From an uncultured Solirubrobacteraceae bacterium (lineage in GTDB: Bacteria > Actinomycetota > Thermoleophilia > Solirubrobacterales > Solirubrobacteraceae): a stretch of 64,000 nucleotides of DNA. The notes under the pieces were generated by a model. It was not told the origin of the DNA. It ran no database searches and was given only the letters and a program-made list of their open reading frames with translations. A program made the position numbers and the translations under genes. Position 1 is the first letter of the stretch; each line of letters starts with the position of its first letter. Shown here in pieces: positions 160 to 14,461 of this stretch. The stretch lies in assembly GCA_963710665.1 (NCBI GenBank), contig CAVQBC010000005.1, positions 158,370 to 222,369 of the forward strand, in the 5' to 3' direction.

Positions 160-939
160 ATGAGAGCGCCCGCTACCGTGCCTGCGGTGGCATTTCGCAA
201 CGGATCGACCGTCCCGCCGGCGCTCGCGCTCGAGGGCCTGACCAAGCGCTACGACGACGGGCTGCTCGCGCTCGACCGCGTCGACATGGTCGTGCCCGAC
301 GGCGAGTTCTTCGGCCTGCTGGGCCCCAACGGGGCGGGCAAGACCACGCTGATCTCGGCCGTGTGCAACCTGATCCGCGCGACCGCCGGCACCGCCCGCG
401 TGTTCGGCCATCCGCACGACTCGCTCGAGGCGCGCCGGCTGGTCGGCCTCGCCGAGCAGGACGTCAACCTCGACCGCTTCCTCGACGTCTCCGAGACGCT
501 GCTCTACCACGGCGGCTACTACGGCATGAGCCGCGCGCAGGCCCGCCGCCGGGCGCACGAGATGATGGACGTCTTCGACCTGCGGGGGAAGGCCGAGACG
601 CGCGCGCCGCGGCTGTCGGGCGGCATGCGCCGGCGCCTGCTCCTCGCCCGCGCGCTGATGCACGAGCCGCGCCTCGTGATCCTCGACGAGCCGACCGCCG
701 GCGTCGACTACGAGCTGCGCCTCGAGCTGTGGCGCTACATCCGCCGGCTGCACGAGACGGGCACGACGATCCTGCTCACCACGCACTACCTCGAGGAGGC
801 CGAGGAGCTGTGCGAGGAGATCGCGCTCATCCGCGACGGGCGGATCATCGCGCGCGACTCGGCGCACGGGCTGCGCGCCGCCTACGCGGCCGACTCGCTC
901 GCCGCCGTCTACGTCAAGGCGATGGCGCCCGCGCCCTGA
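160..939 (+). CDS. ABC transporter ATP-binding protein (ABC-2/DrrA-like exporter type)
   Basis: Walker A GPNGAGKTT, signature LSGGMRRRL and Walker B LVILDEPT are present. GAGAGG lies upstream of the ATG. Confidence 0.9.
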   Translation: MRAPATVPAVAFRNGSTVPPALALEGLTKRYDDGLLALDRVDMVVPDGEFFGLLGPNGAGKTTLISAVCNLIRATAGTARVFGHPHDSLEARRLVGLAEQDVNLDRFLDVSETLLYHGGYYGMSRAQARRRAHEMMDVFDLRGKAETRAPRLSGGMRRRLLLARALMHEPRLVILDEPTAGVDYELRLELWRYIRRLHETGTTILLTTHYLEEAEELCEEIALIRDGRIIARDSAHGLRAAYAADSLAAVYVKAMAPAP

Positions 940-946
940 GGCGCCG

Positions 947-1849
947 ATGACCGCGACCGCGGCCTCAGGCGCCGAGCGCCGGGGCGGCACGCCCGCCGCC
1001 GTCGCGATGGTGCTCGCCGCGGTCGGCTCGCTGCAGTTCGGCGCGGCGTTCGCCGCGACGCTGTTCGACGAGCTCGGCCCGGGCGGCGCCGCCTTCCTGC
1101 GCCTCGCGCTCGCGGCGGTGATCCTGATGGCGCTGTGGCGTCCCCGCCTGCGCGGCCGCTCCGCCGCCGACCTGCGCGTGGCGGTGGCCTTCGGCCTCGT
1201 GCTCGGCGGGATGAACTGGGCGATCTACGAGTCGTTCTCGCGCATCCCGCTCGGGATCGCGGTCACGATCGAGTTCGTGGGGCCGCTGGGCGTGGCCGTG
1301 GCGGGCTCGCGGCGCGCGCTCGACCTGCTGTGGGTCGTGCTCGCGGCGGCCGGCATCCTGCTGCTCGCCGACCGGGGCGGGGGCGGCGGCCTCGACCCGC
1401 TCGGCATCGTGCTCGCGCTCGTGGCGGGGTGCTGCTGGGCCGCCTACATCCTGCTCAGCGCCCGCACCGGCCGCCGCTTCCCGGGCGGCCACGGCCTCGC
1501 CCTGGCGATGGTGGTGGGCGCCCTGCTGACGCTCCCCGCCGGCGTCGTCCAGGCCGGCGACGCGCTGCTCGACCCGCGGCTCCTCGCGGGCGGGCTCGTG
1601 GTGGCGATCGCCTCCTCGGTGCTGCCGTACTCGCTCGAGCTCGAGGCGCTGCGGCGGCTGCGGGCCGCGGTGTTCGGCGTGCTGATGTCGCTCGAGCCCG
1701 CGATCGCCGCGCTCGCCGGCCTGGTCGTCCTCGGCCAGGCGCTGGGCGCCGGCGAGCTCGTCGCGATCGCGCTGGTGCTGGCCGCCAGCGCCGGGGCGAC
1801 GCTGACCCCGCGGCGCCCGGACGCCGGCGCCGCGGAACCCGTCGTCTAG
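947..1849 (+). CDS. rhtA: EamA/DMT family transporter, RhtA-like (threonine/homoserine exporter type)
   Basis: About 10 predicted TM segments. The segment LGIAVTIEFVGPLGVAVAGSRRALDLLWVVLAAAGILLL closely parallels E. coli RhtA as I recall it ([36 protein letters not shown]). Confidence 0.75.
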   Translation: MTATAASGAERRGGTPAAVAMVLAAVGSLQFGAAFAATLFDELGPGGAAFLRLALAAVILMALWRPRLRGRSAADLRVAVAFGLVLGGMNWAIYESFSRIPLGIAVTIEFVGPLGVAVAGSRRALDLLWVVLAAAGILLLADRGGGGGLDPLGIVLALVAGCCWAAYILLSARTGRRFPGGHGLALAMVVGALLTLPAGVVQAGDALLDPRLLAGGLVVAIASSVLPYSLELEALRRLRAAVFGVLMSLEPAIAALAGLVVLGQALGAGELVAIALVLAASAGATLTPRRPDAGAAEPVV

Positions 1850-1861
1850 CCTGGCTGGCCG

Positions 1862-2638
1862 ATGTCGTCCCTGATCGCCGCCCACCGCGGGCTGATCGCC
1901 CTCTCCTCGCGCGAGGTCGCGCGCGTCCTCAAGCTGTGGACGCAGACGGTCGCCGCGCCGATCATCTCCAGCGCGCTGTTCATCCTCGTGTTCGGCCTGT
2001 CGCTCGGCGGGCGCATCCGCGAGGTCCACGGGGTGCCCTACGAGCAGTTCATCGTGCCTGGGCTGATCGCGATGGGCATGGCCCAGGCGGCCTACGCGAA
2101 CAACTCCTCGAGCGTCTTCCAGGCCCGCTTCGACCGCTACCTCAACGACGTGCTCGCCGCGCCGATGCGCGGCTGGGAGGTCAACCTCGGCCTCAACCTC
2201 GGGGGCGTGGTGCGCGCGCTGCTGATCGGCGGCGGGCTGTTCGCGGTCGCGGTGCCGCTCACCGGCGTGCCGGTGCGCGAGCCCCTCGTGCTCGTCCTCT
2301 CCATCGTGCTGCTGCTGGCGCTGTTCTGCTCGTTCGGCGTCGTGGTCGGGGTGTACGCCGAGTCGTGGGACCAGTCGGCGTTCGTGACCAACCTCGTGAT
2401 CCTGCCGCTGTCGTTCCTGGGCGGCGTCTTCTACTCGATCGACTCGCTGCCCTCGCCGTGGCAGGAGATCTCGCACGCCAACCCGATCTTCTATCTGATC
2501 AACGCGGTGCGGGCCGGCTTCTTGGGGACGGCGGACGTGTCGGTCGCCCTCTCGCTGGCGGTGACCGCGGTGATCGCGGCCGCGTCCGTCGCCTGGAGCG
2601 TGTGGCTGTTCGCCACCGGGCGGCGGCTGAAGCCCTAG
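1862..2638 (+). CDS. ABC-2 type transporter permease
   Basis: 258 aa with six hydrophobic segments and a typical ABC-2 N-terminus (SREVARVLKLWTQTVAAPIISSALFILVFG). Probable partner of the ATPase at 160-939. Confidence 0.85.
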   Translation: MSSLIAAHRGLIALSSREVARVLKLWTQTVAAPIISSALFILVFGLSLGGRIREVHGVPYEQFIVPGLIAMGMAQAAYANNSSSVFQARFDRYLNDVLAAPMRGWEVNLGLNLGGVVRALLIGGGLFAVAVPLTGVPVREPLVLVLSIVLLLALFCSFGVVVGVYAESWDQSAFVTNLVILPLSFLGGVFYSIDSLPSPWQEISHANPIFYLINAVRAGFLGTADVSVALSLAVTAVIAAASVAWSVWLFATGRRLKP

Positions 2639-4755: not shown

Positions 4756-5946
<1,191 letters not shown>

Positions 5947-7545: not shown

Positions 7546-8058
7546 CTAGGCCTCGACACCGCCGGCGAACGGGTGCCTTGCGGCGGGTTCCTCCGCCACC
7601 ACGGTGTCCGCGCTCGGCTCGTTCGCGAGCGCGCGGGCGATCGACTCCTTGGTGGCGGCGTAGTTGTAGTCGAAGATCTTCTTGTCGTCCGTCGCCTCCC
7701 AGTGGATGAAGATCCCCACGATCAAGCAGAGGTCGTCGGCGTCCTGCGCGCTGAGGACGCCCTCGCGGACCGAGTCGACCACGGCGCGCGCCACCGCGGC
7801 CTGGGCGGGGCCGAACATCTGCAGGGCCTGCTTCTCGCCCTTGATCGTGACCTTGTTGGAGATCACCGTGTCGGGCTTGCACGGAAGGTTGGGGGCCACC
7901 ACCGCGAGGAGGTTCGTGTGCCCCTCCTTCTGGTTGACCAGCGAGCTCGCGAACGCGTGACCGGCGGGCCCGTCCTTCGGCCCGATCAGCAGGTCGACGT
8001 GGGCGACCTCGGCGCCGTCTCCGACGAGTGACTCTCCGACCAGCAGTGACCTCGGCAT
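7546..8058 (-). CDS. fae: formaldehyde-activating enzyme (5,6,7,8-tetrahydromethanopterin hydro-lyase family)
   Basis: 170 aa from ATG 8058 with GGAGGG upstream. [28 protein letters not shown]...[13 protein letters not shown]...[10 protein letters not shown]...VGIFIHWEA...HPFA matches the Methylobacterium Fae sequence as I recall it, along its whole length. Confidence 0.85.
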
Positions 8059-8193
8059 TCGCTGACCCTCCTGCTCGGGCGATGCCCTCCACATCCCACG
8101 CAACCGCGACCCACGCGGCGCGAGGGGTCGGCCGACCCTACCCACTGGTTGCGCCACTGGCAAGGGATTCGCGCAATTTGCCAGGTTCCGGCC

Positions 8194-9657
8194 CTAGCCC
8201 ACCCGCCGCGCCGGCCTGAGCACGGTGAGCCTGCCGGCGCCGCCCCCGCCGGCCCCGGCCGCGCCGGAGACCACGGCCAGGTAATCCACGCCGCCGATCG
8301 TGTAGACGATCGGCGCCGACGCGTAGCCGGTGTCGAACCGCCGCCGCCAGGCGATCCGGCCGTCGCCGGCGTCGAAGGCGTACAGCGTGCCCGCGGTGTC
8401 GCCCGCGAACACCAGGCCACCCGCGGTGGCGGTCGCGCCGCCGAGCATCGGGGCGTCGACGCACTGCCGCCAGCGCACGCGGCCGCGCTCGAGGTCGATC
8501 GCCGCGAACGTGCCGGCGGGCCGCTCCGCGCCGGTGGCGCCCGTCCCGCCTGGGACCGGCGGGGGCCCGGACACGTACGCCGCGCCGGACCTCGGGCTCA
8601 AGGCCACGGGGGCGGCCGACGACCCCGCGGGGACGCCGGGACAGCGCCGTGCCCGGTCCTCGGGGGTGGGCACCGGGCGGTAGAGCGGGCGCCCCGAGCG
8701 CGCGCTGAGGGCGAGGAAGCGGCCGCCCAGGCCGGCCTGGCCGACCGCGCGCACGCGGCGGCCGTTGGCCTTCGTCTCGAAGATCACCACCGCCGAGCCG
8801 GCGCCGTGGTCCCACGGCTCGTGGTGCAGCCAGTCGACCTCGCCCGTGCGCGCGCGCAGCGCGAGCAGCCCGGCCGGCGAGCGCCCCGCGCGGCGCGGGC
8901 CGGGCGCAGCCCCGCTGGGCGGGCCGCCGGTGCCGGCGTAGAGGATGCCGCGGGTCGTGTCGATCGTCGGCGGTGCCCACACGCCGCCGGTGCGCCGCCG
9001 CCACTCCTCCTCGCCGGTCTCTCCGTCGAACGCGGCCACGAACCCGCGCGCGCCGTCGTCGTCGCGCGTACCGGCCGCGAACGCGACGCCGTCCCACACG
9101 GTCGGCGCGGCCGTGCAGCGGGCGCCGGCGTCCGCGACCCGCGTCCGCCACAGCCGGTGCCCGGTCGCCTCGTCGAGGGCGTGCAGCCGGCAGTCCAGGG
9201 TGAGCGCGTAGACCTTGCCGTCGGCGACCGCCACGGCGCGGTCGGCCGGGAGCGGCACGCCCTGCTCCCCGCGGCGCGACGGGCGGGCGACGTGTCGCCA
9301 GACCAGTCGCCCGGTGGCGGCGTCGAGCGCCAGGACCTCGTCGGCGGGGGTCGTCACGTACATCCGCCGGCCGACCACCACCGGGTGGGTCGCGCGGCCC
9401 GGCGCCCCGCGTCCGGGCCCGCGCCGCCACGCGACCTCGAGTCCGGCCACGGTCGAGGCGCGGATCCGGTCGGCGGGGCTGAAGCGCGTGTTGTCGGCGG
9501 TCTTGCCGAACAGCGGCCAGTCCCCGCCGGAGTGCGAGCCTCCGCGCGCGCCCACGACCGCGACGACGGCGCCGGCCACCACCAGGGTGCCGACGGCGAT
9601 CAGGGCGATCAGGCGGCTGCTCATCGCGCCCCACCGGCCGGGAGCGCGACTGGTCAC
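8194..9657 (-). CDS. PQQ-dependent dehydrogenase-like beta-propeller protein with N-terminal membrane anchor
   Basis: N-terminal TM MSSRLIALIAVGTLVVAGAVVAVVG, then DWPLFGKTADNTRFSP and repeated A.D..TG...W propeller motifs, as in quinoprotein alcohol dehydrogenases. Short (~475-487 aa) and lacks the vicinal Cys-Cys. GTG 9657 overlaps the pqqE stop (GTGA); an alternative ATG is at 9624. Confidence 0.7.
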   Translation of the reverse strand: MTSRAPGRWGAMSSRLIALIAVGTLVVAGAVVAVVGARGGSHSGGDWPLFGKTADNTRFSPADRIRASTVAGLEVAWRRGPGRGAPGRATHPVVVGRRMYVTTPADEVLALDAATGRLVWRHVARPSRRGEQGVPLPADRAVAVADGKVYALTLDCRLHALDEATGHRLWRTRVADAGARCTAAPTVWDGVAFAAGTRDDDGARGFVAAFDGETGEEEWRRRTGGVWAPPTIDTTRGILYAGTGGPPSGAAPGPRRAGRSPAGLLALRARTGEVDWLHHEPWDHGAGSAVVIFETKANGRRVRAVGQAGLGGRFLALSARSGRPLYRPVPTPEDRARRCPGVPAGSSAAPVALSPRSGAAYVSGPPPVPGGTGATGAERPAGTFAAIDLERGRVRWRQCVDAPMLGGATATAGGLVFAGDTAGTLYAFDAGDGRIAWRRRFDTGYASAPIVYTIGGVDYLAVVSGAAGAGGGGAGRLTVLRPARRVG

Positions 9658-10775
9658 CGCGGGCCGGGTACTCCGTCCGGCCGCAGCGTGCGATAGACGA
9701 GCGGCGTGTCGCCGTTGCCGGCGGAGTCACGCTCGCGCGCGTCGACGATCATGTCGTGGTGCGGCGACAGCCGGCACACCGGGTCCGCGTTGGTCGGGTC
9801 GCCGGTGAGCAGCATCGCCTGGCAGCGGCAGCCGCCGTAGTCGACCTCCTGGCGGCCGAGCGGGCAGCTCGCGCACGGCTCCTTCATCCACCCGGTGCCG
9901 CGGAAGGCGTTGAACGCACCCGACTCCTCCCAGATCCACTCGAGGGAGCGCTCGCGCACGTTGTCGAACTCGAGGCCGGGGATCACCGTGGCCGCGTGGC
10001 ATGGCATCGCGTCGCCGCTCGGCGCCACCACGATCGCGTGGCGCCCCCAGCCGCCGCTGCACGTCTTCGGCAGGTCCTCGTAGTAGTCGGGGAGGACGTA
10101 GAGGATCTCCATCCGCGGGCCCAGCCGCTGCCGGAACTCCTCGACGACCCGCTCGGCGCGCTCGAGCTGCTCGCGGGTCGGCATGAGCGCCGCGCGGTTG
10201 GGCATCGCCCAGCCGTAGTACTGCGTGTTGGCGAGCTCGACCCGCTCGGCGCCGAGCTCCTCCGACAGCGCGAGGATCTCGTCGATGCGGTCGAGGTTCT
10301 GGCGATGCATGACGAAGTTCATCGTGAGCGGGAACCCGAGCTCGCGCGCGAGGCGCGCCGCCTCGAGCTTGCGCTCGAACGAGCGCGTCCCCGCCATGCG
10401 GTCCGACTCCTCCGCGCGGCTGTCCTGGAGCGAGACCTGCACGTGGTCGAGCCCGGCCTCGCGCAGCGCCTCCGCCCGCGCGCGCGTGAACGAGAGCGCC
10501 GCCGTGACGAGCGTCGAGTACAGCCCCGCCGACCGCGCGGCCGCCGTCAGCTCGACGATGTCGGGGCGGGCCATCGGCTCGCCGCCCGTGAGCCCGAGCT
10601 GCATCACGCCGAGCGCCCGCGCCTCGCGGAACACGCGCGTCCAGTCCTCGGTGGAGAGCTCGTCCTTGTAGTGGGCGTCCCCGATCGTCAGCGGGTTCGA
10701 GCAGTACGGGCAGTGCAGCGGGCAGCGGTAGGTCAGCTCCGCGACGAGCGTGAAGGGCTTCTCAGAGAACGTCAC
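9654..10775 (-). CDS. pqqE: PQQ biosynthesis radical SAM protein PqqE
   Basis: Radical SAM motif CPLHCPYC and C-terminal SPASM cysteines (CSGGWG...CHA...CASCP...CRCQ). I prefer GTG 10775, which overlaps the pqqD stop by 14 nt; the ORF-track ATG at 10832 is an alternative. Confidence 0.9.
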   Translation of the reverse strand: MTFSEKPFTLVAELTYRCPLHCPYCSNPLTIGDAHYKDELSTEDWTRVFREARALGVMQLGLTGGEPMARPDIVELTAAARSAGLYSTLVTAALSFTRARAEALREAGLDHVQVSLQDSRAEESDRMAGTRSFERKLEAARLARELGFPLTMNFVMHRQNLDRIDEILALSEELGAERVELANTQYYGWAMPNRAALMPTREQLERAERVVEEFRQRLGPRMEILYVLPDYYEDLPKTCSGGWGRHAIVVAPSGDAMPCHAATVIPGLEFDNVRERSLEWIWEESGAFNAFRGTGWMKEPCASCPLGRQEVDYGGCRCQAMLLTGDPTNADPVCRLSPHHDMIVDARERDSAGNGDTPLVYRTLRPDGVPGPR

Positions 10776-11046
10776 GGACGAGCCCCCTCTCGGCGAGCGC
10801 CACCAGCAGCTCGCGTACGTCGTCGCCGACATCTGCCCCGCCGTAGCGCTCGCCGAGCTCCGCCACGATCGTGCCGACCGTCCGCTCGCCGTCGCAGAGC
10901 TCCAGCACGGCGCTCGCGGTGTCGTTGAGCGCGACCGCCCCTTCGGGGACGAGCAGCACGCGGCGCTCGCGCACGTCGTCGTAGTCGAGGCGCGTGCCGC
11001 GCGCGAGGTGCGGCCGGGCGTCGTCGGAGACCGGGGCCGAGCTCAC
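10762..11046 (-). CDS. pqqD: PQQ biosynthesis peptide chaperone PqqD
   Basis: 94 aa from GTG 11046, overlapping the pqqC stop (GTGA). Sequence LLVPEGAVALNDTASAVLELCDGERTVGTIVAEL; size and position are typical of PqqD. Confidence 0.85.
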   Translation of the reverse strand: MSSAPVSDDARPHLARGTRLDYDDVRERRVLLVPEGAVALNDTASAVLELCDGERTVGTIVAELGERYGGADVGDDVRELLVALAERGLVRDVL

Positions 11047-11771
11047 GGTCGTGCGGCCGGTGGGCGCGTCTCGCCCCGCTCGATCGCGTCGAGCTGGGCC
11101 CACAGCAGGTCGCACTTGAACGTCAGCGCCTCGATCGCCCGCTCCTGGTCGGCCCGGGTGGTGCAGTAGGTCGTGACGAGGTCGAGCGCGTGGCCGGCGT
11201 CGCGCGGCGCCTGCTGCAGCCGATGGCGGAAGTAGTCGAAGCCGGCCGGGTCGATCCACGGGTAGTGCTCCTCGAGCGCCGCGAGCCGGGCGCGCATCGC
11301 GTCGGGGCCGAAGAGCTCGGTGAGCGACGACGCGACGGCCTCGATCCACGGCTTCTGCCGGCAGAAGTTGACGTAGGCGTCGACCGCGAAGCGCACGCCG
11401 GGGAGCAGCCGGCGCAGGGAGACGACCTCCTCGCGCTCGAGCCCGACCGCCTCGGCGAGCCGCAGCCAGGCCTCGGTCCCGCCCGGGTCGTCCCCGGCGC
11501 CGTCGTGATCGGTGATGCGCCGGATCCACTGCCGCCGGACGTCCTGGTGCGGGCAGTTGGAGAGCACCGCGGCGTCCTTGAGCGGGATCGCGAGCTGGTA
11601 GTAGAAGCGGTTCGCCGCCCACCGCTGGAGCTCCTCGCGCGAGAGCTCGCCCGCGTTCATGCGCCGGTGGAAGGGGTGGAGGTGGTGGTAGCGCTCGCCT
11701 TGCGCGCGCAGCTCCGCGGCCAGCTCCTCCGCCGTCCACAGGGTCGTTCCTGGTTCCGCCACCTGCGCCAC
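11043..11771 (-). CDS. pqqC: pyrroloquinoline-quinone synthase PqqC
   Basis: YHHLHPFHRRMNAGELSREELQRWAANRFYYQ...LKDAAVLSNCP; 242 aa, which is the PqqC size. Confidence 0.9.
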   Translation of the reverse strand: MAQVAEPGTTLWTAEELAAELRAQGERYHHLHPFHRRMNAGELSREELQRWAANRFYYQLAIPLKDAAVLSNCPHQDVRRQWIRRITDHDGAGDDPGGTEAWLRLAEAVGLEREEVVSLRRLLPGVRFAVDAYVNFCRQKPWIEAVASSLTELFGPDAMRARLAALEEHYPWIDPAGFDYFRHRLQQAPRDAGHALDLVTTYCTTRADQERAIEALTFKCDLLWAQLDAIERGETRPPAARP

Positions 11772-11780
11772 CCGGGCCTC

Positions 11781-12695
11781 CTAGAGCTCGACGAGCATCC
11801 CGTCGTAGGCGATCTCGATCCCTGCGGATTCCACGGCGCGTCGCTCCGCGGAGTCCTCCAGGAGGATCGGGTTCGTGTTGTTGATATGTACCAGAATCGT
11901 CCTGGGGCCCTTGAGCCGTGCGAGCCGCTCGAGGCTGCCGTCCGGCCCGGAGAGCGGCATGTGGCCCATCTCGAGCGCCGTGCGCCCGCCGATCCCCGCC
12001 GCCGCGAGCTCGTCGTCGCGCCAGAACGTGCCGTCCACGAGGATGCAGTCGCAGGCCTCGAGCCGGCTCATCATGGCGTCGTCGAGGCGCTCGATCACGG
12101 GTACGTACATCGCCCGGCCGCCGGTCGCGGGGTCGCGCAGCGCGAGCGCCACGGCGTCCTCCCCGGAGGCCGCGGAGTCGCGCACGAAGCGCGGCGGGTC
12201 GCCGCCGACCGCGAGCGGCACGACCTCGAGCGGCGCGGACGGCCCGCCGGCGCCGAGCGAGAGGCCGCGGCCGGGCTCGAGCGGGTGCCAGCTCACGCCG
12301 CTGTAGCCGTCGAGGACCCGCAGGAGGGGGTTGTCGGTCGTGAGCGCGCGCCGGACCGCCTCGGTGCTCCAGAGCTGCAGCGGCTCGGCGCCCTCGCGCA
12401 GGATCAGCAGGCCGGTCGTGTGGTCGATCTCGGCGTCGGTCAGCACCACGCCGGCGATCGGGCTCGAGCGGACGCCGTCCGCGGGCGCCTCGCGCAGCAG
12501 CTCGAGCTGCTGGCGGACGTCAGGCGAGGCGTTGACGAGGAACCACGGCCCGTCGCTCGCCCGCACGGCGAGCGAGGACTGGGAGCGCGGGACGGCCGGG
12601 GCGCCCCCCTCGCGCACGGCCCGGCAGGTCGGGCAGGAGCAGTTCCACTGCGGGAATCCTCCGCCCGCGGCCGACCCCAGGACGCGGATGATCAT
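11781..12695 (-). CDS. pqqB: PQQ biosynthesis protein PqqB (metallo-beta-lactamase fold)
   Basis: MIIRVLGSAAGGGFPQWNCSCPTCR is the characteristic PqqB N-terminus; 304 aa. Confidence 0.9.
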   Translation of the reverse strand: MIIRVLGSAAGGGFPQWNCSCPTCRAVREGGAPAVPRSQSSLAVRASDGPWFLVNASPDVRQQLELLREAPADGVRSSPIAGVVLTDAEIDHTTGLLILREGAEPLQLWSTEAVRRALTTDNPLLRVLDGYSGVSWHPLEPGRGLSLGAGGPSAPLEVVPLAVGGDPPRFVRDSAASGEDAVALALRDPATGGRAMYVPVIERLDDAMMSRLEACDCILVDGTFWRDDELAAAGIGGRTALEMGHMPLSGPDGSLERLARLKGPRTILVHINNTNPILLEDSAERRAVESAGIEIAYDGMLVEL

Positions 12696-12708: not shown

Positions 12709-12739
12709 GAGAAAGGGCCCGCCGGCGGCGGGCCCTCTC
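12709..12739 (-). terminator. intercistronic hairpin (attenuator/partial terminator) between pqqA and pqqB
   Basis: Perfect 9-bp GC stem, GGGCCCGCC (12715-12723) and GGCGGGCCC (12727-12735), with a 3-nt loop. On the transcribed minus strand it is followed by TTTCTC. Confidence 0.5.
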
Positions 12740-12764: not shown

Positions 12765-12839
12765 TTAGCGCCGGGCGACGTACAGGGTGACCTCGAGGGA
12801 CCCCTCGATGATCTCGAACTCAGGCTTGAACCAGGTCAT
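12765..12839 (-). CDS. pqqA: PQQ precursor peptide PqqA (24 aa)
   Basis: Minus strand, ATG 12839 to TAA 12765, encodes MTWFKPEFEIIEGSLEVTLYVARR with the conserved E-x3-Y (EVTLY). AGGTGA Shine-Dalgarno sits upstream. Too short to appear in the ORF track. Confidence 0.85.
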   Translation of the reverse strand: MTWFKPEFEIIEGSLEVTLYVARR

Positions 12840-12949
12840 TCATCACCTTCCCGTCGATGGCACAACGTTCCCGTCAGGCGCACAACATGCCAAAACCGGA
12901 CGGCATGACGCGGATCGCCCCGGGGGCTGCACGAGGGTAGCATCGCGCG

Positions 12950-14461
12950 ATGCGCGTGGAGGTGGTGGGAGGCCCGCCGGAGGCGATCGAAGCCGACGTC
13001 CTGGGCGTCGGCGTCGTCGAGCCCGCCACGGAGCCCGGCGGGGCGGTCGCCGCGATCGACCGGCCCCTCGGCGGCCGGCTCGCCGACCTGGCGCGCGAGG
13101 GCGAGCTCACGGCGACGGGCGGCTCGGTGCTCCTGCTGCACGTCGATGGGGGCCCGCCGCCACCCCTCGCGGCCTCGCGGGTGGCGGCGGCCGGCCTCGG
13201 CGCCGCCGAGCGCCTCGACGCCGACGCGATCCGCACCGCGGCGGCCGCTGCCGCGCGCACGGCGGCGCGCTTCGGCGGGTCGCTCGCGTGGGTCGTCGAC
13301 GAGGCGCTGCCGCTGCCGGCGGCCGAGCAGGCGCGCGCCGCCGTCGACGGGGCGTCGCTGGGGACCTATGACCCCGGGCGCTGGAAGAGCGGGCGCTCGG
13401 CCGGCAAGGACCTGCGGCGGCTCGTGATCGCGGGCGGCGGCCTCGACGGCGTCGCCGAGGCGGCCACCCGCGCGGGCGTCGTGGCGCGCTGGACCACGCG
13501 CGCGCGTGACTTCGTGAACGCGCCGGCCAACGAGATGACGCCGACTGCGCTCGGAGAGCGGGCCGAGGAGATCGCGCGCGAGGTGCCCGCGCTCACGGTC
13601 GAGGCGCTCGGCCCGGAGGCGATCGAACGACTGGGCCTGACGGCGTTCGCCGCCGTCGCGCGGGGCAGCGACGAGCCGGCCCGGCTCCTCGTCGCGCGCT
13701 ACGACCCGCCGGCCCCCGCGCGCGACGACCTCGTCCTCGGCCTCGTCGGCAAGGCGATCACGTTCGACTCCGGCGGCCTCTCGCTCAAGAGCCCGGAGCG
13801 GATGACGTGGATGAAGGTCGACATGGCCGGCGGGGCCGCCGTCGTGTGCGGCCTCGGCGCGATCGCCGAGCTCGGCCTGCCGGTGCGGGCGCTCGGCGTG
13901 GTCGCGGCGTGCGAGAACATGCCCGGCCCGCGCTCCTACCGCCCCGGCGACATCATCCGGACGTTCAACGGCACGACGGTCGAGGTCACGAACACCGACG
14001 CCGAGGGCCGCATCGTGCTCGCGGACGCGCTCGCGCACGCGCGCGCGCTCGGGGCCACCCACCTCGTCGATCTCGCCACGCTGACCGGCGGCGCCCTCGG
14101 CGACGTCTACGCCGGGCTGTTCGCGCGCGGCGACGACTGGCGCGACGAGCTGCTCGCGGCCGCCGACGCCAGCGGCGACCACGCCTGGCCATGGCCACTG
14201 CATCGCCGCTTCCGCCGCCTGCTGGACTCGGACGTCGCGGACCTCAAGAACTCCGCCTCAGGCCGGGCGGCCACCGCCGCGGCGGCAGCGTTCCTGTCCG
14301 AGTTCGCGGGCGACGGGCCGTGGGCGCACGTCGACATCGGCGGTACGGCCTTCCTCGAGCGCAGCCGGGGCGACTACCTGAGCCAGCGCGGGGGCACCGG
14401 CGCGGGCGTGCGGCTCGTGGCCGAGCTGGGGAGGCGGCTGGCGTCAGCCCCGCCGGGCTGA
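12950..14461 (+). CDS. pepA: leucyl aminopeptidase (M17 family)
   Basis: M17 motifs VGKAITFDSGGLSLK, MKVDMAGGAAV and NTDAEGRIVLADAL. Confidence 0.9.
   Translation: MRVEVVGGPPEAIEADVLGVGVVEPATEPGGAVAAIDRPLGGRLADLAREGELTATGGSVLLLHVDGGPPPPLAASRVAAAGLGAAERLDADAIRTAAAAAARTAARFGGSLAWVVDEALPLPAAEQARAAVDGASLGTYDPGRWKSGRSAGKDLRRLVIAGGGLDGVAEAATRAGVVARWTTRARDFVNAPANEMTPTALGERAEEIAREVPALTVEALGPEAIERLGLTAFAAVARGSDEPARLLVARYDPPAPARDDLVLGLVGKAITFDSGGLSLKSPERMTWMKVDMAGGAAVVCGLGAIAELGLPVRALGVVAACENMPGPRSYRPGDIIRTFNGTTVEVTNTDAEGRIVLADALAHARALGATHLVDLATLTGGALGDVYAGLFARGDDWRDELLAAADASGDHAWPWPLHRRFRRLLDSDVADLKNSASGRAATAAAAAFLSEFAGDGPWAHVDIGGTAFLERSRGDYLSQRGGTGAGVRLVAELGRRLASAPPG

Follow-up and report, generated by a model that had tools for sequence, protein, structure and literature searches.

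Ribosomally made peptides of the PqqA family, the precursors of the redox cofactor PQQ, have been described in Klebsiella pneumoniae, Pseudomonas spp. and Methylorubrum extorquens. The peptide presented here shares with them a length within the range of 23-29 residues, an N-terminal W-x-K-P motif and a C-proximal Glu-x3-Tyr pair (EVTLY). The gene order of the characterised PQQ producers is also shared: pqqA comes first, directly before pqqB, and pqqCDE follow. PqqE, acting with PqqD, cross-links two conserved residues of PqqA, a Glu and a Tyr (PMC5715301; PMC12997753). Orphan extra copies of pqqA are known in methylotrophs, for example pqqA2 and pqqA3 of M. extorquens and the five copies of Methylovorus sp. 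MP688 (PMC11317620). In the actinobacterium Mycobacterium smegmatis, the PQQ synthesis genes are clustered with the gene of a client dehydrogenase, the PQQ alcohol dehydrogenase MSMEG_3726 (PMC3023750). A similar logic is found in the mycofactocin system, which is common in Actinobacteria (PMC3023750). There the tiny peptide MftA, the PqqD-type chaperone MftB and the PqqE-like radical SAM/SPASM enzyme MftC lead to a redox cofactor, but the conserved C-terminus of the peptide and the product are different.

The locus analysed in this work lies in a stretch of 64,000 nucleotides, called the window below, from the genome of an uncultured Solirubrobacteraceae bacterium. It differs from the loci of the characterised producers in three respects: the host is a Solirubrobacterales-type actinomycete and not a proteobacterium, the PqqA peptide scores below the Pfam threshold, and pqqF and pqqG are absent. 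Comparison of the sequences indicates that a 24-codon reading frame of the window is, with high probability, pqqA, encoding the ribosomally made PQQ precursor as the first gene of a pqqABCDE operon.

Results

The features of the locus are collected in Table 1. Re-translation of the window confirmed the 75-nt minus-strand frame described in the original prediction, which reads ATG ACC TGG ... CGC TAA. Two in-frame TGA codons lie directly 5' of the ATG at 12839, so only one start is possible. The TAA stop (12765-12767) is located 69 nt upstream of the ATG of pqqB at 12695; the ORF thus occupies the canonical place before pqqB, as had been claimed. The sequence AGGTGA, noted earlier upstream of the ATG, was found at 12843-12848 inside a longer Shine-Dalgarno-like sequence, and GGGAGG or GGAGG is present at an equal distance from the pqqA ATG in relatives. 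The Glu-x3-Tyr pair of cross-link residues was likewise found where it was expected, as Glu16-Val-Thr-Leu-Tyr20. The description of the gene as unlisted holds in part. The ORF is missing from the ORF track, but a public collection (JGI/IMG) already contains exactly this peptide as the product of a called gene; its absence from the track is due to the length cut-off and not to a gap in knowledge.

Table 1. Features of the pqq locus and of related loci. Positions without a prefix are those of the window; G000 is the genome of the window and G001 a congener.
Feature	Location	Strand	Evidence or remark
pqqA, 24-aa PQQ precursor peptide MTWFKPEFEIIEGSLEVTLYVARR	12765..12839	-	translation, TIGR02107, orthologous 24-codon ORFs
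Shine-Dalgarno-like GGGAAGGTGA	12843..12852	-	3-6 nt before pqqA ATG
13-bp stem-loop, core GGGCCCGCC / GGCGGGCCC, loop GCC, then UUUCUCAU	12711..12739	-	folding, MFE -33 kcal/mol
pqqB (304 aa)	11781..12695	-	TIGR02108 378 bits, cut-off 245
pqqC (242 aa)	11043..11771	-	TIGR02111 329 bits, cut-off 240
pqqD (94 aa)	10762..11046	-	TIGR03859 82 bits, cut-off 46; PF05402; GTG start overlaps pqqC stop (GTGA)
pqqE, radical SAM/SPASM enzyme	9654..10775	-	TIGR02109 520 bits, cut-off 381
Atypical short PQQ beta-propeller dehydrogenase (487 aa)	8194..9657	-	PF01011 163 bits; TIGR03075 206 bits, cut-off 480
fae, formaldehyde-activating enzyme	7546..8163	-	PF08714 228 bits; TIGR03126 241 bits
M17 leucyl-aminopeptidase paralogue	12950..14461	+	PF00883 337 bits; divergent from pqqA, 110-nt gap
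Linked M17 copies, related loci	L007-L083 at ~890-2050	-	
Linked M17 copies, genomes	G001:C1:349177-350088; G042:C4:429465-430523; G125:C13:32155-33417; G180:C1:194333-195583; G174:C107:713-1981		
Second pqqA, MTWTKPEFEVVDLCLEVTSYVYRR	G000 contig C3 873714-873788 = L001:1495-1569 = L094:9715-9789	+	24 codons
R2-like ligand-binding-oxidase-like (R2lox-like) gene	L094:8566-9687	-	beside second pqqA
MSMEG_3727-family PQQ-associated protein	L094:7776-8399	-	TIGR04339 252 bits; PF23509
Canonical methanol/ethanol-family PQQ alcohol dehydrogenase (563 aa)	L094:6048-7739	-	TIGR03075 598 bits, cut-off 480
R2lox-like genes, related loci	L008-L084 at ~5480-5890; L092, L093		L092 and L093 fetched using the R2lox-like protein
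Congener pqqA, pqqC, pqqD, pqqE	L004, G001:C1:345412-348468		pqqC directly after pqqA
Congener pqqB	G001:C1:350609-351496		beyond M17 peptidase gene

Of the two PqqA models by which the original prediction had proposed to check the ORF, one recognises it and the other does not. With the NCBIfam PqqA equivalog TIGR02107 (curated cut-off 20 bits), the peptide scores 27.1 bits (E 2.7e-6), and model positions 1-20 of 21 are aligned. In a six-frame search of the whole 5.4-Mb genome its score is 24.8 bits. At E<=10 this search finds three places, namely the window ORF, a second 24-codon pqqA-like ORF and one 12-bit match; the first two are above the cut-off. None of 14 control genomes reaches the TIGR02107 cut-off. 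The window ORF therefore stands far above chance. With Pfam PF08042 the window peptide scores 13.1 bits, below the gathering threshold of 21.1 bits, which is an operational limit of a second model for the PqqA family and not a biochemical feature. Clade-typical PqqA peptides and the second copy of this genome score 24.7-28.7 bits with the same model, and the nearest relative (locus L113, PqqB 92% identical) scores 16.6 bits. The shortfall of the window peptide arises because Gly13-Ser14 stands in place of Leu/Met-Cys.

A sample of 201 genomes of the order contains pqqC in 14, and TIGR02107 at E<=0.01 per genome matches 7 of those 14. PqqA is systematically under-called by profile searches in this lineage, and Pfam misses the window variant. 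A search of PDB sequences with the window peptide matched no PqqA chain; the only matches were Strep-tag II / Factor Xa tags (WSHPQFEK-IEGR), which were rejected as an accidental likeness to WFKPEFEIIEGS.

The second pqqA, on contig C3, scores 27.8 bits with TIGR02107 and 28.6 bits with PF08042, and GAGAGGAGAGGG precedes the ORF. The exact peptide was not in the public protein collection searched. This copy lies away from pqqBCDE. Three minus-strand genes stand next to it in divergent orientation, for an R2lox-like protein, a member of the MSMEG_3727 family and a PQQ alcohol dehydrogenase; the last of these is 80-86% identical to dehydrogenases encoded upstream of pqqA in relatives. As in the methylotrophs, one pqqA of this genome is thus found apart from pqqBCDE (PMC11317620), but here it is divergent from the operon just described. 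The genome also resembles M. smegmatis in having a member of the MSMEG_3727 family (TIGR04339/PF23509), but here the cassette accompanies the second pqqA, on a contig other than that of pqqBCDE. A gene for an R2lox-like (ferritin-like di-metal) protein adjoins pqqE, on either strand, in 44 related pqqB loci, while in the genome of the window it is placed beside the second pqqA. The idea that the C3 pqqA is a relic of a simple deletion of pqqBCDE beside the R2lox-like gene is not favoured, the gene orientations being at odds with a single deletion.

Eighty related genome loci, mostly from Solirubrobacterales/Thermoleophilia MAGs, were fetched with PqqB (52-62% identity), and in 58 of them a 24-codon pqqA ends about 68 nt before pqqB. 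One of the eighty, L030, is identical to G005, a genome of the same family, and this puts the organism of the window in that group. The residues W3, P6, F8, E16, T18, Y20 and R24 are invariant across 60 distinct nucleotide sequences of this gene, and the window ORF has all seven. The mean pairwise differences among the 60 sequences are 0.18, 0.09 and 0.33 at codon positions 1, 2 and 3, respectively; variation biased in this way to the third position indicates a coding sequence under purifying selection. The consensus of the MAG peptides (24 aa) is MTW-x-KP-x-FEF-x-E-[LM]-C-S-EVTSYLYHR. The window locus has the same peptide length, the same gap with a hairpin before pqqB and, as is often the case in the MAGs, a divergent M17 neighbour. 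However, its PqqB and M17 proteins are on long basal branches, and the peptide is an outlier of the clade with F4, G13, S14, L15, L19 and A22. In 58 of the 60 relatives, positions 13-14 are Leu/Met-Cys and position 22 is Tyr or His, where the window peptide has Gly13-Ser14 and Ala22. The Cys14 of those 58 peptides is located two residues before the cross-linked Glu, and it is Ser in the window and in two close loci, L112 and L113. Gammaproteobacterial PqqA peptides have Gly at position 14.

The two close loci were found by a metagenome scan. In L112, where PqqB is 99% identical, the PqqA peptide is identical to that of the window. In L113 the peptide is MTWRKPEFEIVEGSLEVTLYVARR, and its gene differs from the window pqqA by four synonymous changes (Gly13, Thr18, Leu19 and Val21), by a TAG stop in place of TAA, and by two replacements only, at positions 4 and 11, both of which are variable across the clade. 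The spacer upstream of pqqA is far more diverged between L113 and the window than pqqA itself. Within this spacer, at 12860-12905 of the minus strand, TTTGGCATG ... GTTGTGCCATC are kept in L113 and the bases between them diverge. They contain TGGCA/TGCCA half-sites about 24 nt apart, which could serve for the binding of a regulator or as part of a promoter. A promoter scan predicted no sigma-70-type promoter at pqqA.

The 69-nt gap between pqqA and pqqB contains a GC-rich stem-loop. When the 70 nt that follow pqqA are folded, nearly every relative shows a hairpin of comparable strength (median z -2.6 against shuffled sequences), and L113 retains the stem through a compensatory change of a C:G to a U:A pair. 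A simple terminator scan did not call the stem-loop and found no canonical terminator there, and the Rfam search gave nothing near threshold at E<=1. In Methylobacterium and Klebsiella, pqqA is represented by far more transcript than the downstream genes. Such abundance fits a partial terminator or a transcript stabiliser after pqqA, and this is the likely role of the stem-loop as judged from its fold and conservation.

A different role for the window ORF has to be weighed at this point. It could be mainly a leader or attenuator whose translation, together with the hairpin, controls read-through into pqqBCDE, the substrate being supplied by the C3 pqqA. The strong hairpin 3' of the ORF is in favour of such a role, as are the outlying, sub-threshold peptide without the Cys14 of the clade and the better scores of the C3 copy with both models. 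However, a leader ORF would not need the seven invariant residues, and all of them, including Glu16 and Tyr20, are kept in the window and also in the 92% relative, where synonymous sites have changed. Moreover, the arrangement of ORF, hairpin and pqqB is the usual one in 58 loci, in which no other pqqA lies near the operon. We consider a leader function very improbable, and the assignment of the ORF as the gene of the PQQ precursor is preferred.

The four genes downstream of pqqA are closely packed or overlapping, and the products of all of them score above the curated TIGR equivalog cut-offs, so that the complete pqqABCDE set of the original prediction is supported. The probable GTG start of pqqE at 10775 gives an overlap of 14 nt with pqqD; the longest ORF extends to 10832. 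Both pqqC and pqqE are present in a single copy in the 5.4-Mb genome. The genome encodes two PQQ-type dehydrogenases, one after pqqE and one elsewhere, and the quinoprotein encoded after pqqE is a likely user of the PQQ cofactor. The true start of fae is probably within the ORF given in Table 1. None of the 80 related pqqB loci showed a fae homologue within its 2.5-kb flanks.

These neighbours are important for a second alternative, in which the peptide is the precursor of another ribosomally made, radical-SAM-modified product and not of PQQ. PqqD-like and PqqE-like proteins do serve other peptide pathways, for example mycofactocin (PMC3023750), and the failure of the window peptide at the Pfam threshold would agree with this. 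However, PqqB, PqqC, PqqD and PqqE pass models specific for PQQ, including that of the last-step enzyme PqqC, and quinoprotein dehydrogenases are encoded beside the operon and elsewhere in the genome. Membership of the ORF in the MftA family was ruled out, since the radical SAM enzyme of the window scores 520 bits as PqqE and 110 bits as mycofactocin maturase, and the conserved C-terminus is different. A product other than PQQ is even less probable than a leader function. Finally, a chance open frame in GC-rich DNA, which the very short length of the ORF and the lack of a predicted promoter might suggest, has a negligible probability, being contradicted by a TIGR02107 score above the curated cut-off at two places only in 5.4 Mb, by conservation of an ORF with third-position-biased variation at the orthologous position in the clade, and by the purifying pattern of substitutions in the close relatives.

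No pqqF or pqqG was found in the cluster or in the genome, where only generic M16 peptidases, far under the TIGR02110 cut-off, are present. The gene divergent from pqqA encodes the second of two M17 proteins of the genome, and 42 of the 80 related loci likewise have an M17 gene in this divergent position. Two M17 matches occur in only four genomes of the 201-genome order sample (G000, which is that of the window, G042, G125 and G180). All four are pqqC-positive, and the extra M17 copy is located within about 2.5 kb of pqqC in each. An M17 gene lies between pqqACDE and pqqB in the congener G001, and beside pqqA at a contig end in G174.

In a tree of M17 proteins, 46 pqq-linked copies are split from 12 others on one branch with 100% SH-aLRT support, the window copy being basal; this is a quick tree with long branches, adjacency served to define its groups, and the relatives do not count as independent. 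The catalytic DAEGR sequence is kept. It is preceded by N-P in 45 of the 46 linked copies (N-P-DAEGR), in contrast to the canonical N-T-DAEGR, and the window copy has NTDAEGRI. A literature search found, within the library covered, no report linking pqqA with M17 or leucyl aminopeptidase. From its position and phylogeny, the M17 paralogue of the window is a candidate for the peptidase that trims PqqA where pqqF is absent.

A free tree of PqqB pairs the window protein, on a long branch, with two sequences from Gemmatimonadota. Horizontal transfer from Gemmatimonadota was considered and is not favoured: an AU test does not reject the placement of the window PqqB with the Actinomycetota sequences (p 0.33), and among the pqq-linked actinobacterial M17 proteins the linked copy of the window is basal as well. 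The window PqqB is therefore read as an early and long branch, and the trees do not demonstrate transfer. In the congener G001, pqqC comes immediately after pqqA, with pqqD and pqqE next, and pqqB is set apart beyond the M17 gene; a PQQ dehydrogenase gene and the gene of a small membrane protein are located upstream of pqqA. The separate position of pqqB in this genome shows that the operon order has been rearranged within the genus.

Discussion

The window pqqA is an ordinary, sequence-divergent member of its family in the canonical place, and by itself it adds nothing new to the biology of PQQ. The characterised pathway allows us to propose how the locus would work. The N-terminal W-x-K-P-x-F region of the peptide would be bound by the chaperone PqqD, and the radical SAM/SPASM enzyme PqqE would form the bond between the gamma-carbon of Glu16 and the Tyr20 ring. 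The cross-linked pair would then be cut out by peptidases, the divergent M17 paralogue being a candidate in the absence of pqqF, and PqqB and PqqC would complete the oxidation to PQQ. The cofactor would be used by the quinoprotein dehydrogenase encoded after pqqE and by the second one encoded elsewhere in the genome. Between pqqA and pqqB, the GC-rich stem-loop probably serves to terminate, or else to stabilise, a short and abundant transcript of pqqA, which would provide this stoichiometrically consumed peptide in excess over the enzymes. The C3 pqqA probably supplies the same single PqqBCDE set.

A broader proposal can be made only tentatively. The pqq-linked M17 lineage might supply the trimming of PqqA in Actinomycetota, in the role of PqqF/PqqG, and the two pqqA genes, each beside its own quinoprotein dehydrogenase, might feed one PqqBCDE set on demand. 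Taken as a whole, we regard this proposal as possible rather than probable.

With pqqA added, the pqq operon is complete, and the organism may be counted among the likely PQQ producers. The complete operon also supports the view that the neighbouring genes for the quinoprotein and the formaldehyde-activating enzyme work together as a module. Beyond this locus, the pqq-linked M17 paralogue could help with an old question, namely which protease trims PqqA when an organism has no pqqF.
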